DNA of 64,000 nt from positions 28,026 through 92,025 of the forward strand of contig SUUO01000003.1 in assembly GCA_015062485.1 (NCBI GenBank), written 5' to 3'. Below the pieces are notes generated by a model, which was not told the DNA's origin, did not search any database, and saw nothing but the letters and a program-made list of their open reading frames with translations. Numbering within the stretch: position 1 is the first letter of the stretch; each line of letters starts with the position of its first letter. Positions 24,602 through 30,763 of the stretch are shown one piece after another. The DNA comes from Alphaproteobacteria bacterium (GTDB taxonomy: Bacteria > Pseudomonadota > Alphaproteobacteria > Rs-D84). A program made the translations under genes and the position numbers.

Positions 24602-24630
24602 AATTCCCCGCCGAATGGCGGGGTTTTATT
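24600..24630. terminator. bidirectional intrinsic terminator
   Basis: CCCCGCC gaat GGCGGGG with flanking A/T runs, between rnhA and the S gene. Confidence 0.8.
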
Positions 24631-24901
24631 ATGACATTGGGCACGCATCGGTGTATTCGTATGTGCCACTGTCATCGGTATACGACATACCCGCCGGCGC
24701 ATACATTATACACGACCCCGCGGGACTGGATACCAAACACGATTCCGCCACGCCTACGGAAATTGTGCCACTGGGACAACTGGTCGCGATTGTAAGATAT
24801 TCTTCATCAATCGCGATATATCCCGCGGGACACGACGTTGACGGCGCGGCGGCACGCGCCACCATTGGCACAAAACAAAATAAAAACATCAATCGTTTCA
24901 T
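24629..24901 (-). CDS. secreted Cys-rich S-family protein
   Basis: RBS AAGGAGG overlapping the L-gene stop. AAAPSTSCPAGYIAI ... CIMYAPAGMSYTDDSGTYEYTDAC. 5 Cys in the mature part. Confidence 0.9.
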   Translation of the reverse strand: MKRLMFLFCFVPMVARAAAPSTSCPAGYIAIDEEYLTIATSCPSGTISVGVAESCLVSSPAGSCIMYAPAGMSYTDDSGTYEYTDACPMS

Positions 24902-24911
24902 TTGTGCCTCC

Positions 24912-25358
24912 TTAATCAGATAAATTCGTAAAAAAAGCGGTTCTGTATGCTTGATAGCTAGAATGAATCAAAGAATCATAACAATAAGACGCGCAAGTTC
25001 GCAGGCAAGAATCACGTGTAAGATCGTCGTCTGCTAACACCCATTTAGATACGGCTGGACTTACCATTTTGCACCAGCAATAATCATTAGAATATGAAGC
25101 ATCACTTGCAGCAGTATAAACAATAGTATCTTTTTGATCTTGAGTTTTGCCTAATGTATCTGCACACACTGCTATAAATTGAACAGGAATCTCTTCATTG
25201 TTAGTGCCATAACATGTTGCGGTTAAAGAAGAAGCATAATCAGCTGGTTCTGTTCCCGTACATGTTTTTGTTGCATCCAATGCCACACATTTTTGTACCG
25301 CCAACGCGGGTGCGGCAAGTAATGCACCAACCGCGGTTAATGTTAAAAGTTTTTTCAT
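24912..25358 (-). CDS. secreted Cys-rich L-family protein
   Basis: ATG 25358 with RBS AAGGAGA. MKKLLTLTAVGALLAAPALA signal peptide. DYCWCKMVSPAVSKWVL ... DSCLRTCASYC. 9 Cys. Confidence 0.9.
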   Translation of the reverse strand: MKKLLTLTAVGALLAAPALAVQKCVALDATKTCTGTEPADYASSLTATCYGTNNEEIPVQFIAVCADTLGKTQDQKDTIVYTAASDASYSNDYCWCKMVSPAVSKWVLADDDLTRDSCLRTCASYCYDSLIHSSYQAYRTAFFTNLSD

Positions 25359-25674
25359 TTTCAATCTCCTTTCTTTTGTTTTATTCGCGAAAAAACAAAA
25401 ACCACACGTTTTTCACGAGTGGTCAGGAGGTTGGAAACAATCAATACGAATTGTGCTGCTTATTCAATATATTCACAGCCCCCCTGACACTAAATGCTCA
25501 GGAGATATTTGTCATTTGGTTTTCACACGAAAAAACACGCCATCGGCGCGTCGGATTTCGTTTCCAAACGCGTATTGCACGGGTTTCCACACCCCATTAT
25601 GACCATCGATCATAACAAACAAATTATAACCAAATATTTCATCCAACGCAACGACGAAGATAAATAAAAGTTTA
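25359..25674 (-). promoter_or_regulatory. leader module copy 4
   Basis: Read on - strand: -35 TTGCGT (25646-25651), 17-nt spacer, -10 TATAAT (25623-25628). A/T motif 25658-25674. Key 7-mers 25432-25438 (tGGAAac) and 25583-25589 (gtTTCCa). Confidence 0.8.
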
Positions 25675-25906: not shown

Positions 25907-25936
25907 TAAAAAATCCCGCCGAATGGCGGGATTTTT
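25907..25936 (-). terminator. intrinsic terminator after rlmE
   Basis: A6-TCCCGCC gaa TGGCGGGA-T6. Confidence 0.85.
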
Positions 25937-26595
25937 TATCCACGGAACCCCAGTGCAACAATAAACATTTCCACACTGTCCTTGCGTGACGATGGTGGTT
26001 TGATATGATGCACAGATTCAAATTTTTCTTTGATTTGTTTTAATAAGTCATTTGTTGTTCCACCGGTAAAGGACTTGCACACAAACGTGCCACCCGGCTT
26101 TAATGCACGTAACGCAAAATCAAACGCATATTCCAATAAAACCATCTGACGAATATGATCCGTCTTTTTATGTCCAACCGTATTCGGCGCCATATCAGAT
26201 ACAATAACATCAGCCGTACCATTACCGGTTTCATCGGGCGACAAGCCCAACTTTTCTTCCAGCCAGCGCAATGCCGCATCAGATGTAAAATCGCCCTGAT
26301 ATGTTTCCACACCAACGATTGGCGATATTTCCAACAAATCCATCGCAAAAACTTTCGATTTCGGATACGTACGCGCAATGTATTGCGACCAGGAACCCGG
26401 TGCCGCACCCAAATCAACAACAACCTGGCCATTGCGCAAGAATTTAAACTTCTCGTTCATTTCAATCAGTTTATATGCCGCACGTGCGCGATAGCCATCC
26501 TTTTGTGCACGTGCAACATATGGATCCGCCGCCTGGCGTTGCAGCCACGCGACCGATGATTTCTTTGCCGCAATTTTCTTATTTGTTATTTTCAT
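25936..26595 (-). CDS. rlmE: 23S rRNA (uridine2552-2'-O)-methyltransferase RlmE/FtsJ
   Basis: WLQRQAADPYV, VVDLGAAPGSWSQ, VSDMAPN motifs. TAATG overlap with the upstream gene. Confidence 0.92.
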   Translation of the reverse strand: MKITNKKIAAKKSSVAWLQRQAADPYVARAQKDGYRARAAYKLIEMNEKFKFLRNGQVVVDLGAAPGSWSQYIARTYPKSKVFAMDLLEISPIVGVETYQGDFTSDAALRWLEEKLGLSPDETGNGTADVIVSDMAPNTVGHKKTDHIRQMVLLEYAFDFALRALKPGGTFVCKSFTGGTTNDLLKQIKEKFESVHHIKPPSSRKDSVEMFIVALGFRG

Positions 26596-27113
26596 TATCG
26601 TGTACGATTCTGCTCTTTGATACGACGTTTGTGCGCATTGTATGCCTCCATAGCAGCCGCCTGGGGACTTACATATGTTGTATACATACGATCATCATCA
26701 GTGCTATAAAATTCGGTATCTTTTCCGTGATGCTTATAGGTCACAACAACATTATACCCGATAACACGCCCGTTTTCTATGACCGCGCGCGGGGATTCAA
26801 CGGATGTCACATCCCAATTAAAAATATGCCGCCAATCTGTTTTCAGTCTCTGCGCCCTTATTCTTTCCAACTCTTGTTGTTTTCCCATTTTACGCAGATG
26901 TTCCTTGTACGATGCCTGGGCCGCATCTTTTGGACCAGCCCACACCTTGTACAAACGCGGTTCATCCAAGCTATAAAACTCCACATCTTGACCGTGATAC
27001 TTATATTCCACGACAACCCGATATCCAACGGTCTTGCCATCTTGCACAACTGCCTCTGGGGCTTTAAGTGCAACGACGTCCCAGTCCAAGATATGCTTCC
27101 AATCTATTTTCAT
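26595..27113 (-). CDS. hypothetical protein with two tandem copies of an unknown ~85-aa domain
   Basis: Internal repeat DW(K/R)HI..WDV....P.AV...G..(V/I)GY.VVV.YK.HG.D.EFYS.D. ATG 27113 is 1 nt after the upstream stop. Confidence 0.7.
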   Translation of the reverse strand: MKIDWKHILDWDVVALKAPEAVVQDGKTVGYRVVVEYKYHGQDVEFYSLDEPRLYKVWAGPKDAAQASYKEHLRKMGKQQELERIRAQRLKTDWRHIFNWDVTSVESPRAVIENGRVIGYNVVVTYKHHGKDTEFYSTDDDRMYTTYVSPQAAAMEAYNAHKRRIKEQNRTR

Positions 27114-27114
27114 A

Positions 27115-27387
27115 CTATCTGCCTTTAATTTTTTGTTGTTTTTCACGATAGAAGTCGAACGCCATTTTTCGTGCCTTGGCACGCGTAATCATACATAACT
27201 TCTCTTCATCATCTGCGAACAGGTATTTCCGTTCACCGTGATATTTATAGTTTACCGTAACCTCGTATCCCAAAAGAACGTGCCCCTTATCACGATAATC
27301 ACGATAAACCTCGACCGGTGCAGACACAGCAACCGGTGTCCAGTCAAACCAAGTTTTTACATCATTTACAATACCACGTAAACTCAT
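27115..27387 (-). CDS. hypothetical protein, single copy of the same ~85-aa domain
   Basis: WFDWTPVAVSAPVEVY...LLGYEVTVNYKYHGERKYLFADD aligns with the repeats of 26595..27113. Confidence 0.65.
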   Translation of the reverse strand: MSLRGIVNDVKTWFDWTPVAVSAPVEVYRDYRDKGHVLLGYEVTVNYKYHGERKYLFADDEEKLCMITRAKARKMAFDFYREKQQKIKGR

Positions 27388-27388
27388 T

Positions 27389-27886
27389 TTAATTTACCCC
27401 CTGTGGTTTTGGTCCCGGTTGTTGCTGCATACGTGCCATAACCGCTTCCATACCACCCATACGCTGAATCATTGCCATTTGTTGTTTCATTTTTGTGTAT
27501 TGCTTTATCATATGTTCAACATCACGTACGGTGCAACCTGCTGTCTCGGCAATACGTGCCTTGGCATTGGCGAAAACTTTTTCTGGGTTTGCGCGTTCTT
27601 CGGCGGTCATCGCTTCCAAGATTTTGATTTGTGCATCGACACTGCCGTCTTTGATTTTTTCTTTCATTGCACCAACGGCATCTTTCATACCCGGCACCAT
27701 TTTCAACAGACCACTGAAATTGCTCATTTTCTTAATCTGCTTTAACTGCGCCAGCATATCATTCATATCGAATTGACCAGACATCATACGCTCGGCCGTT
27801 TCGCGCATACCAGATGGGATTTTTTCCGTCGTTGCTTCGTTTTCTACAACATTTTCTTGTTTTTTCTTTTTACCAAAGCCAAACAT
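27389..27886 (-). CDS. stand-alone SRP54/Ffh M-domain-like protein (no NG GTPase domain)
   Basis: RBS AAGGAG. GQFDMNDMLAQLKQIKKMSNFSGLLKMVPGM ... ILEAMTAEERANPEKV ... ARIAETAGCTVRDVEHMIKQYTKMKQQM aligns by eye with the E. coli Ffh M domain (FDLNDFLEQLRQMKNMGG...LPGM; MT.KER..PEII; RRIA.GSG..VQDVNRLLKQF). Confidence 0.75.
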   Translation of the reverse strand: MFGFGKKKKQENVVENEATTEKIPSGMRETAERMMSGQFDMNDMLAQLKQIKKMSNFSGLLKMVPGMKDAVGAMKEKIKDGSVDAQIKILEAMTAEERANPEKVFANAKARIAETAGCTVRDVEHMIKQYTKMKQQMAMIQRMGGMEAVMARMQQQPGPKPQGVN

Positions 27887-27928
27887 TTCTACTCCTTTTA
27901 ATATTTTTCTATTTTATTGTCTTTTTAT

Positions 27929-30763
27929 CTATTTGTCCAGATACTTCTTTAAATATTTCCCGGTCTGCGATTCAGACACATTTACAATATCTTCGGGTGT
28001 GCCGGTTGCAATGACACGCCCGCCATTTGCGCCACCGGTCGGTCCCAAATCTATAATCCAGTCCGCGGTCTTAATCACTTCCAGATTATGTTCAATAACG
28101 ATAACCGTATTCCCTTGTTCGACCAATTCGTGTAACACAGACAACAACATCTTGATATCTTCAAAATGCAATCCAGTTGTTGGTTCGTCCAAGATATAAA
28201 TTGTTTGTCCCGTACTGCGTGCGGCCAATTCTTTGGATAATTTTATACGCTGGGCCTCGCCCCCGGACAGGTCCAACGAACTTTGCCCCAGTTTGATATA
28301 ATCCAGTCCCACACGCTTTAACAATTCCAGTTTGCGTGCAATCTTGGGCACATTAACAAAGAACCGATACGCCTCTTCGACGGTCATATTCAAGACATCT
28401 GCGATTGATTTACCCTTGTACTTTACCGCCAGTGTTTCTTCGTTATAACGCGTTCCGTGACAACAATCACATTCCACATACACATCAGCCAAGAAATTCA
28501 TTTCTATCTTAATCTGGCCATCACCCTGACAGGCCTCGCACCGGCCACCTTTGACGTTAAATGAAAAACGTCCCGACGTGTATCCGCGCGCCTTGGCCTC
28601 GGGCAGGCCCGCAAAGAAATCACGAATATCGCCAAATACACCGGTATATGTTGCCGGATTACTGCGTGGCGTGCGCCCAATTGGGGATTGATCGATATCA
28701 ACCACCTTGTCCACATTTTCCATACCACGAATAATATCGTGCGCCCCCGTTTCCAGTTTTGAATTATACAGCGCACGCATCAGCGCCGGATACAACGTAT
28801 TTAACAACAGTGTCGATTTCCCAGACCCCGACACACCCGTCAAGGCCACAAATTTACCCAATGGAAATTCAACATCTATGTTTTTAAGGTTATTTCCACG
28901 CGCGCCCGACACAACAATCGATTTTCCATTACCCGCGCGACGCTTTTTCGGTACGGCAATTTTACGTTTACCCGATAAATATTGCCCGGTGATTGAATCT
29001 TTGTTTTTTATAACCTGACCGGGTGTCCCGTGCGCAACAACATTACCACCGTTAATTCCCGCGCCACGTCCAATATCCACCAAATAATCCGCCGCGCGCA
29101 TTGCATCTTCGTCGTGTTCGACAACAATAACCGTGTTATCCTTGTCCCGTAACATTTTCAAGGTTTCCAACAACTTATCATTATCCGCCTGGTGCAGGCC
29201 AATGGATGGTTCGTCCAAGACATACAGAACCCCCGACAGACCACTGCCGATTTGTGATGCCAGGCGAATACGCTGGGCCTCGCCCCCCGACAGGGTGCCC
29301 GCCATACGCGACATTGTTAAATACCCCAACCCAACATTTTGCAAGAAATATAACCTGTCTGTAATTTCACGCAAAACAATTCGTGCGATTTCATTATCTT
29401 TTTGCGACAGATGATTTGGCAAATCACGGAACCATTGCAGGCAATCATCAACCGACATATCACACACATCCATAATATCCGCGCCATTTATCCGCACACA
29501 CAACGCGTGAATATTCAAGCGCTTTCCGTGACACACCGGACACGGTTTTTCAGACTGATATCGCGCCAAATCACTACGTACCGCCTCTGAATCCGATTCG
29601 CGCCACCGGCGTTCCAGATTTGGAATAACCCCTTCGAACGGCTTTTCATACACAAATCCATTCCAGTTAATTTTGATTGGTTTATCACCACTGCCGTACA
29701 GAATTAAATCTTTTTGTTCCGCCGTCAATGTGTGCCACGGTTTTCCAAGTGGGATTTTGAATGCTTTATGCAAGGCTTCGAACAAATGTTCATATTGGCT
29801 AAGCATTCCGCCACGTGACCACGGTGCAATCGCCCCACCCAAAATTGACTTAGATGGATCCGGCACAACCAAATCCGGCGACATATTTAATTGCACACCC
29901 AACCCGTCACAATTCTGACACGCCCCCATCGGCGCATTAAACGAGAACAAGCGCGGCTCTATCTTTGGCACTGTAAAACCACTGACCGGACAGGCATAGT
30001 TTTGCGAATATAAAATATCTTCATTTGTATCCAGGCGACGCACCAACACCGACCCCGGCACCAGACGCAAAGAACCCTCGAACGACGCATACATACGCGA
30101 CCGAATTTCTTCCGTTTCGGCATCTGCATCTGGAATTTGTAATCTATCAACAATAACGAAAATATTATGCTTTTTATTTTTATCTAATGTCGGCACCGCG
30201 GACAAATCAACCAATTCATCATCAATAATCGCGCGCTGATACCCCTGCTTGACCAAGAACGCCAATTCTTTGCGATATTCACCCTTACGCTCGCGTACCA
30301 GTGGCGCCATAATAAATATCTTTGTACCCGCCGGGATTTTCATTGTCCAATCGACCATTTCCGCGACCGTCTGTGACTTAATCGGTTTGCCGGTAACGGG
30401 TGAATGCGGCACACCAATACGCGCCCACAACAGACGCAGATAATCATAAACCTCGGTCACGGTACCAACGGTAGAGCGTGGATTCTTAGACGTTGTTTTC
30501 TGTTCAATGGAAATGGCGGGGGACAGCCCCTCAATCAAATCAACGTCTGGCTTTTTCTGCATATCCAGGAACTGACGTGCATACGACGACAGCGATTCGA
30601 CATATCTGCGCTGGCCCTCGGCATAAATGGTATTAAATGCCAGCGACGATTTCCCAGATCCAGATACGCCGGTAAAGACCACCAATTTATTCTTTGGTAT
30701 GTCCAGGTCGATATTTTTAAGATTATTTTCGCGTGCACCACGAATTTTTATTACATTTGCCAT
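27929..30763 (-). CDS. uvrA: excinuclease ABC subunit A
   Basis: Two ABC ATPase modules ([18 protein letters not shown] x2) and zinc-finger Cys clusters. 944 aa. Confidence 0.97.

Follow-up and report, generated by a model that had tools for sequence, protein, structure and literature searches.

A 64,000-nucleotide stretch of contig SUUO01000003.1 (NCBI GenBank assembly GCA_015062485.1, positions 28,026 to 92,025 of the forward strand; hereafter the window), from an alphaproteobacterium of the GTDB lineage Rs-D84, carries a gene for a 165-amino-acid protein that consists of little more than the methionine-rich M domain of Ffh (SRP54), the protein of the signal recognition particle (SRP), with no NG GTPase domain attached. 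We refer to it as the M-only gene. Our comparisons indicate that it is what remains of ffh in Enterousia and five related genera, and that the Ffh GTPase, the receptor FtsY and the SRP RNA are all missing from these genomes, while the part of Ffh that would bind signal sequences has been kept under strong selection. Enterousia belongs to the GTDB order and family Rs-D84 and has genomes of about 0.9 Mb that are undergoing reduction (PMC12306168). The related loci that we found come from metagenome-assembled genomes (MAGs) named Candidatus Enterousia or "Alphaproteobacteria bacterium", obtained from the rumen, colon and faeces of ruminants, horses, chickens and humans. The source genome itself comprises 941,769 bp in 17 contigs and is 96.7% complete; most genomes compared are MAGs that are 64-100% complete, and all derive from uncultured organisms.

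A stand-alone M domain of Ffh

27389..27886, minus strand: stand-alone Ffh M-domain gene, 165 aa; ATG start, stop codon at 27389-27391; PF02978 and TIGR00959 matches

An earlier note, made from the letters of this DNA, had proposed an M-domain gene without an NG domain at this site. The coordinates and the length of the product stand and the strand has been corrected to minus, while the core of the proposal was borne out and proved true of the whole genome. The profile scan for SRP_SPB (PF02978), which the note had suggested as a check, returned a significant match over the full profile (positions 1-91 of 91) at residues 38-137, with E 2.4e-23 and 82.8 bits (cut-off 27); the next-listed Pfam families, BORCS7, DUF4878, FRB_dom and Alkyl_sulf_dimr, followed at E 0.0015 to 0.03. 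The NCBIfam equivalog for ffh, TIGR00959, was matched at model positions 314-427 alone, with 85.2 bits against a cut-off of 473.2, and thus not over its full length (1-428). The closest solved relatives are the M domains of E. coli Ffh (5aka_5, 2xxa_A and 1dul_A, E about 1e-15), and 6z1p_AT, a Tetrahymena mitoribosome protein with a signal peptide-binding domain, is also among them (E 3.4e-4).

An AlphaFold model built from a 32-row alignment has a mean predicted local distance difference test score (pLDDT) of 70 and a predicted template-modelling score (pTM) of 0.57. It is disordered over residues 1-23 (pLDDT < 50) and all-helical from residue 25, with predicted helices at 25-36, 41-56, 68-79, 82-92, 106-116 and 120-142 and a further one at 146-155 in the tail. 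When the model was compared with the PDB using Foldseek, ranks 1-40, down to E about 3, were occupied exclusively by M domains of SRP54/Ffh or by mitoribosomal mL105 chains; 4xco_C was among the best fold matches (TMq 0.57). The M-only family comprises 897 clusters at 90% identity, whose members are unnamed or labelled "hypothetical protein" or "SRP54". Other short matches (120-290 aa) in the representative library were mostly ordinary Ffh fragments with the canonical RNA motif and not further M-only lineages.

The SRP GTPases are absent across the clade

The M-only open reading frame (ORF) is the sole SRP_SPB match in the source genome, and the SRP54-type GTPase domain PF00448 was not matched over its cut-off anywhere in that genome, so that both the NG domain of Ffh and FtsY are missing. 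Searches with PF00448, PF02978 and TIGR00959 accordingly found neither the full-length ffh nor the NG-only gene that the earlier note had thought worth looking for elsewhere in the genome. Two of the explanations that it had offered fall with this result: a split ffh, since neither the source genome nor its closed relatives contain an SRP54-type GTPase domain, and a regulator competing with Ffh, since there is no Ffh to compete with. The sole weak PF00448 match (19 bits, G000:C14:2715-4085) is Der/EngA, a protein with two MMR_HSR1 GTPase domains and a KH-like domain and no SRP GTPase.

The absence extends to the relatives. PF00448 was matched over the cut-off in none of 24 relatives from the same genus, and likewise not in the closed circular genome OZ007020.1 (G041, 958,618 bp) or in two further genomes. 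In the five other families of the order, an Ffh of 440-489 aa was found in 15 of 16 genomes, 14 of which also have a second SRP-type GTPase of FtsY size (mostly ~295 aa). A census of 301 genomes of the order with TIGR00959 yielded a single match, confined to positions ~314-427, in 228 of the 232 Enterousia genomes, and the same pattern in five more genera of the family (g13, g16, g18, g19 and g23). Nearly all matching genomes in genera g11, g12, g14, g15, g17, g20, g21, g22, g24 and g25 of the family and in families f2-f6 have a full Ffh (positions 1-428), most of them together with a second, FtsY-like match; genus g26 gave no TIGR00959 match. One ffh of the full-Ffh sister genus g14 (G219:C8:15178-16434, L184) matches the whole model and has an in-frame TAG inside the G domain, which may be a sequencing error or early decay.

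The SRP RNA is not found in M-only genomes

The SRP RNA family RF00169 matched nothing in the source genome at E <= 1. Matches were obtained in 0 of 25 Enterousia genomes, as opposed to 13 of 16 from the order's other families. The family's own full-Ffh genera yielded RF00169 matches in 6 of 15 genomes and never above the gathering score; RF00169 alone is therefore an unfair test, and we trained a lineage-specific covariance model, R1, on 11 of the order's SRP RNAs and searched 36 genomes with it. R1 recovered an SRP RNA at E <= 1.6e-4 in 18 of the 20 full-Ffh genomes of the family (17 at E <= 1e-12), 13 of the 18 being outside the training set. Among the 16 M-only genomes, which include the source, the closed and two single-contig genomes, there was no R1 match better than E 0.3 (at most 16 bits), and the invariant core pattern GTCAGG-N(4-12)-AGCAGC had no match in the source genome. 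Loss of the RNA therefore accompanies loss of the GTPases.

Five of the six weak RF00169 matches in the full-Ffh genera represent a short variant of the SRP RNA with an intact core, GGUCAGGGGGAAACCAGCAGCC, and the flanks CGGAC and GGGUCG; the sixth (L169) resembles a false positive. This short variant, GGGCGGACG...GGGUCAGGGGGAAACCAGCAGCCC...UCGGGUCGCCC (L164-L168; G091, G230, G090, G101 and G186), scores 20-40 bits, below the RF00169 gathering threshold, and standard annotation would wrongly label the full-Ffh Rs-D84 genomes as free of SRP RNA.

The M-only gene as ffh shortened in place

Synteny, alignment and phylogeny identify the M-only gene as an ortholog of ffh that has been shortened in place, leaving the hinge and what follows it up to the C-terminus. 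Where genera of the family have a full Ffh, uvrA is followed on the same strand by a full-length ffh, either adjacent to it (G053 and G091) or at a distance of 0.65-2.1 kb (G090, G219, G063, G101, G136 and G285), and in a sister family (L114) ffh is followed directly by rlmE. A look at synteny in relatives, also proposed by the earlier note, thus places the M-only gene where ffh would be, after uvrA, in 78 of 80 Enterousia loci. The idea of a paralog that binds SRP RNA or signal peptides does not agree with these data: the gene is the only SRP_SPB gene in the genome and occupies the ancestral ffh locus, as an ortholog would, the SRP RNA is absent, and the RNA-binding motif has decayed.

The sequence LGMGD forms the hinge between NG and the GM linker (PMC4468861). 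Measured from this hinge to the C-terminus, Ffh of the sister genera spans 152-169 aa, and the M-only proteins are 155-178 aa long. MAFFT aligned their N-terminal motif, MFGFGKKK, to (I)LGMGD(V/I), with G3 invariant and G5 nearly invariant. The full-length ffh begins ATG TTT GAT (MFD...) and the M-only gene ATG TTT GGC TTT GGT AAA, behind a similar ribosome-binding site. The likely origin would be one in-frame deletion, from about codon 3 to the NG/M hinge, with the native ribosome-binding site and start (ATG TTT G..) preserved. The M domain may then have become independent of RNA through a burst of substitutions.

In a tree of the hinge-to-end region, all 15 M-only sequences, including those of genus g19 and the divergent protein P0128, form one clade inside the Ffh of the family (98 in the Shimodaira-Hasegawa-like approximate likelihood ratio test, SH-aLRT). 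The stem of this clade measures 0.46 + 0.44 substitutions per site; in the eight full-length Ffh of the family that lie closest to it, the terminal branches measure 0.05-0.28. The GM-linker residues of E. coli in this tree served solely as the outgroup. P0128 is 138 aa long and 47% identical, and starts with MGLFGKKK; its gene (ENA contig ERZ23486243 scaffold_68627, 259-675; L133) lies directly 3' of the end of uvrA, with rpsP downstream on the opposite strand. P0128 was not found in the genome contigs searched and is carried by one ENA contig. Because it branches at the base of the M-only clade, the truncation appears to be older than the sampled genera. A tree of uvrA grouped 11 of the 12 M-only genomes together (SH-aLRT 99), with the full-Ffh genera g14 and g22 as the sister group. 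Genus g19 fell outside the main M-only clade, in a polytomy of this single-gene tree, which counts against a common truncation; the approximately unbiased (AU) test on uvrA did not reject a single M-only clade (p 0.33). A single loss event is the simplest reading of these trees, but is not proven.

Conservation of the groove and decay of the RNA-binding face

The ratio of nonsynonymous to synonymous substitution rates (dN/dS) was estimated by the Nei-Gojobori method from 400 random pairs among 80 Enterousia coding sequences. It is 0.071 for the whole gene and differs among its regions as follows.

27863..27886, minus strand: codons 1-8, N-terminal motif MFGFGKKK; identical in 72 of 87 M-only proteins, the rest being near variants; dN/dS 0.077
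27815..27862, minus strand: codons 9-24, variable polar/acidic linker, predicted to be disordered; dN/dS 0.40; pLDDT < 50
27467..27814, minus strand: codons 25-140, GM-linker helix, M1-M5 and finger loop (predicted signal-sequence-binding core); dN/dS 0.033, dS about 1.9
27536..27568, minus strand: codons 107-117, NAKARIAETAG, decayed SRP-RNA-binding motif, aligned with E. coli S397-G407 (SRKRRIAAGSG)
27392..27466, minus strand: codons 141-165, Met-rich C-terminal tail, equivalent of helix M6; MGGMEAVM kept; dN/dS 0.10

The M-only protein is intact and under strong purifying selection. The signal-sequence groove of M. jannaschii SRP54 is made of five elements, the GM-linker helix, M1, the finger loop, M5 and the C-terminal helix M6 (PMC4468861), and all five are present and conserved in the M-only protein, as judged from the alignment and the predicted helices. 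Helix M1 and the finger loop retain their hydrophobic positions, and the methionine content of the core is 11.3%, compared with 9.6% in the M domains of full-length relatives and 3.1% genome-wide. Binding of signal peptides by the M-only protein remains plausible. The motif at the N-terminus is followed by a linker of 6-29 aa with a mean net charge of -2.1. MFGFGKKK resembles the FtsY N-termini of sister genera (MGIFSKISSLF, MGLFSR and MFGLGKKLSIFGKK), the resemblance spanning 4-7 residues.

Most of the changes that are fixed in the clade map to the RNA-binding face and not to the groove, and new invariant residues have become fixed throughout the M-only clade. The motif S/G-R-K-x-R-I-A-K-G-S/A-G of full Ffh in the order has become N-A-K-A/T-R-I-A-E-T/S-A-G in the M-only proteins. 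At the equivalent of E. coli R398, a residue that does not vary among the 22 full-length Ffh compared from the order, 98% of M-only proteins have Ala, and the net charge of the core is +4.5 versus +8.4 in full-length Ffh. From the 1DUL structure, we take the residues of the S397-G407 motif to be contacts of the SRP RNA. Judged by this alignment, the arginines and the GSG turn that hold the SRP RNA are lost.

The locus and its neighbours

27892..27897, minus strand: ribosome-binding site AAGGAG, 5 nt 5' of the ATG; read from the sequence
27911..27939, minus strand: promoter-like site TGGACA-17 nt-TAAAAT, overlapping the final codons of uvrA; matches the consensus at 10 of 12 positions; weak
27929..30763, minus strand: uvrA, conserved upstream neighbour and marker of the ancestral ffh locus
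26595..27387, minus strand: two small ORFs of 90 and 195 aa, tightly packed 3' of the M-only gene; three copies of an ~85-aa domain
25936..26595, minus strand: rlmE, FtsJ-type methyltransferase, conserved downstream neighbour; PF01728 E 1.4e-58

The strong ribosome-binding site noticed earlier is indeed present, and AAGGAG or AGGAG at the same spacing also precedes the M-only genes of the other genomes displayed. Promoter-like sites near the M-only gene were not enriched over shuffled sequence (9 found versus 10.9 expected). The end of uvrA and the start of the M-only gene are separated by 42 nt, which leaves no room for a remnant of NG; the frameshifted NG-coding region that would have made the gene a pseudogene fragment was looked for in this gap, and none was found. 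The earlier observation that uvrA lies upstream and no NG domain nearby is thus correct, and for NG it holds genome-wide. In G204, a single-contig genome of genus g16, the gap between uvrA and the M-only gene is ~600 nt, versus ~40-60 nt in most others (L138/L191, G204:C1:207500-209100). Downstream, rlmE is found in 77 of 80 Enterousia loci.

The two small ORFs matched no Pfam or NCBIfam family. The consensus of their ~85-aa domain is W..W(D/T)V....P.AV..G..IGY.V.V.YK.HG..., and in the source genome the domain is confined to the M-only locus. Searches with tblastn found no copy in 50 of 80 Enterousia loci and 1-3 copies in the other 30. We therefore rejected these ORFs as obligate partners of the M-only protein and regard them as passengers whose presence at the locus varies.

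Further along the window, at 24629-25364 on the minus strand, and also on other contigs, are genes for small secreted Cys-rich proteins with a nearly identical signal peptide, MKKLLTLTAVGALLAAPALA...QKC. A connection of the M-only gene with the conserved signal peptide found in neighbouring proteins, which the earlier note had found attractive, received no support from our tests; 4-6 ORFs genome-wide share the peptide closely.

Proposed function and alternative explanations

The canonical SRP cycle proceeds through signal binding, GTP-dependent docking of NG with FtsY on the RNA tetraloop, and hand-over. With NG, FtsY and the SRP RNA lost, neither an SRP GTPase cycle nor docking at the receptor can take place. 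Because the complete signal-binding module has been preserved by selection, we consider it probable, on balance, that the M-only protein has kept its ability to bind hydrophobic segments, whether signal or transmembrane (TM), with no need of GTP or RNA. It would capture signal peptides or the first TM segments of new membrane and secreted proteins and shield them until they pass to SecYEG/SecA or YidC, which have been retained. In the source genome, Pfam profiles identified SecY, SecA and trigger factor (Tig), and motif searches SecD and LepB; every relative has a YidC. A crude hydropathy count gave 107 ORFs with at least 2 predicted TM segments, 50 of them with at least 4, out of about 996. 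Carried on a flexible acidic linker, MFGFGKKK may act as a tether to the membrane or the ribosome. A soluble cytosolic holdase fits these observations as well as a role at the ribosome exit.

Several points weigh against such a function. The protein lacks the N domain, through which SRP54/Ffh mainly docks on the ribosome. In work by Zopf et al. in 1993, SRP with SRP54M alone reportedly bound signal sequences more weakly and did not support targeting, and Zheng and Gierasch are said to have found in 1997 that the M domain of E. coli is poorly folded without 4.5S RNA. YidC has no C-terminal ribosome-binding tail in these genomes, as it ends two residues past the Pfam domain and is of similar length in the M-only and full-Ffh groups. 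A change of ligand could explain the long stem branch just as well. Finally, SRP is dispensable in bacteria if translation slows or mRNAs are targeted, according to two reports (PMC7844537; bioRxiv 10.1101/2022.11.21.517368); since bacteria are viable without SRP, targeting need not have been replaced at all.

In a more specific version of the proposed function, the M-only protein would be a permanent or semi-permanent factor at the ribosome exit, a bacterial counterpart of mL105/MAP67. Its C-terminal helix would lie near uL23, TM segments would be caught on emergence, and the ribosome would be bridged to the membrane or to YidC/SecY, with the MFGFGKKK arm as the tether. There is a precedent in mL105, an M-only derivative of Ffh that acts as a ribosome-exit factor and contacts the insertase (PMC7326499, PMC9576764, PMC8321541), and the matches in sequence and fold to 6z1p_AT and to Toxoplasma mitoribosome chains point the same way, as does the conservation of the C-terminal helix in M-only proteins. 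The layout of the protein is also FtsY-like, a short basic-aromatic N-terminus and an acidic disordered linker preceding the domain, with a motif like the N-termini of FtsY in sister genera; that likeness, however, extends over just those 4-7 residues. The missing N-domain dock counts against this version, the rough halving of the positive charge of the core speaks against stronger binding of rRNA, and the possibility of bypassing SRP in laboratory bacteria tells against it as well. New extensions of bL24m and uL29m hold mL105 in Polytomella (PMC9576764), whereas uL29 here, the only exit protein compared, is ordinary at 64 aa. We put the exit factor forward tentatively, as a possibility that is more likely wrong than right.

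Use of the domain outside membrane-protein biogenesis seems unlikely to us. The groove would then bind a specific regulator or partner, such as a sigma-32-like protein, or the domain would serve as an adaptor. The ~0.9 substitutions per site on the stem after the truncation and the new clade-wide invariant residues would suit such a change, and E. coli sigma-32 offers a precedent in its SRP-dependent localisation to the membrane (PMC3866087); the genome encodes a sigma factor of RpoH-like size (308 aa). Yet most fixed changes lie on the RNA face, there is no change in Met-richness or at the hydrophobic sites of M1 and the finger loop, and no partner gene is conserved in the operon, the small downstream ORFs occurring in 30 of 80 loci. 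That the gene is a decaying relic of ffh without function, a pseudogene fragment that is still open, is very improbable. It would be in keeping with genomes under reduction (PMC12306168) from which the rest of the SRP system has gone, but dN/dS of 0.03-0.07 with synonymous sites near saturation, an intact frame, and a conserved start and ribosome-binding site across 228 of the 232 species genomes and five further genera argue otherwise, and there is no sign of overlapping constraint at the nucleotide level. We give still less credence to incomplete assembly or a split ffh, with the NG half, FtsY and the SRP RNA left on unbinned contigs. That most of these genomes are MAGs, some of them incomplete, would invite this explanation, but the pattern is the same in the closed G041 and the single-contig G078 and G204, the absences are consistent in more than 240 genomes, and sister genera that were binned alike have all three parts.

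Comparison with known systems

Among known proteins, the M-only protein is most like the bacterial Ffh (TIGR00959, COG0541) of its Rs-D84 sister genera, with which it shares the locus after uvrA, a nested position in the tree, 35-44% identity in the M domain, and the GM-linker helix, finger loop, Met-rich groove and C-terminal helix. It differs from them in having no N or G domain, GTPase, FtsY partner or SRP RNA, in its decayed RNA motif and in the new MFGFGKKK. MAP67/mL105 of the Tetrahymena (6Z1P chain AT), Polytomella and Toxoplasma mitoribosomes is likewise an M domain alone, without SRP RNA or FtsY, and is proposed to have arisen by deletion of N and G from an Ffh of alphaproteobacterial type (PMC8321541). 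Unlike MAP67/mL105, the M-only clade is an independent and much younger one inside Rs-D84, and its protein is encoded on a bacterial chromosome, has 165 rather than ~300 aa, and is far nearer to bacterial Ffh (E 1e-15) than to 6z1p_AT (E 3.4e-4). Ribosome binding has been demonstrated for mL105 (PMC7326499, PMC9576764), whereas the M-only protein is known here from its sequence.

Other systems share single aspects. The chloroplast SRP54 of seed plants is a homolog that works after loss of the SRP RNA (PMC5115805), but cpSRP54 retains NG and its receptor cpFtsY and has gained cpSRP43. Membrane insertion without an SRP cycle is described for Streptococcus mutans without ffh, ftsY or scRNA and for E. 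coli with SRP-bypass suppressors or mRNA targeting (PMC8546722, PMC7844537, bioRxiv 10.1101/2022.11.21.517368). Those are laboratory deletions or bypasses with a fitness cost, whereas the loss in Enterousia is natural, old and clade-wide, with the M domain selectively kept; no second YidC with a ribosome-binding tail was found in the Enterousia genomes compared. Among the experimental fragments of SRP54M and Ffh M (4XCO, GM linker-M; 1DUL, E. coli M), the construct crystallised together with a signal sequence has nearly the same hinge-to-C-terminus boundaries as the M-only protein (PMC4468861). These fragments were studied bound to SRP RNA, while the natural protein must fold and work free of RNA. 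Full-text searches on Enterousia/Rs-D84 and on the loss of Ffh and FtsY in reduced genomes gave no published description of the M-only protein, and the genomic description of the Enterousia group does not mention SRP, ffh or ftsY (PMC12306168).

Significance

SRP and its two GTPases are regarded as nearly universal and are essential in most bacteria. Apart from the present case, SRP is, to our knowledge, naturally missing chiefly in extreme endosymbionts and in organelles. A widespread and abundant clade of the gut and rumen, with six genera and more than 230 species-level genomes of ~0.9 Mb, has here dropped Ffh-NG, FtsY and the 4.5S RNA together, and has kept the signal-binding half regardless, with roughly 100 multi-spanning membrane proteins encoded per genome. 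For annotation, this is a warning that "SRP54" labels on 165-aa proteins, and ffh and ftsY as markers of completeness, mislead in the M-only clade. For biochemistry, it makes available an M domain that would be naturally independent of RNA.

The clade offers a natural separation of the binding function of SRP from its delivery function. We speculate, with no great confidence, that Enterousia and the five related genera rely for membrane-protein biogenesis on a minimal SRP free of GTP and RNA, in which the M domain would dock at the ribosome exit, with the MFGFGKKK-linker arm as its tether to the membrane or the insertase. If true, this would be a living alphaproteobacterial analog of the step that led to mL105/MAP67, from the bacterial SRP to the mitochondrial system, and these bacteria would provide a model for the possible replacement of SRP in mitochondria by a ribosome-bound M domain.

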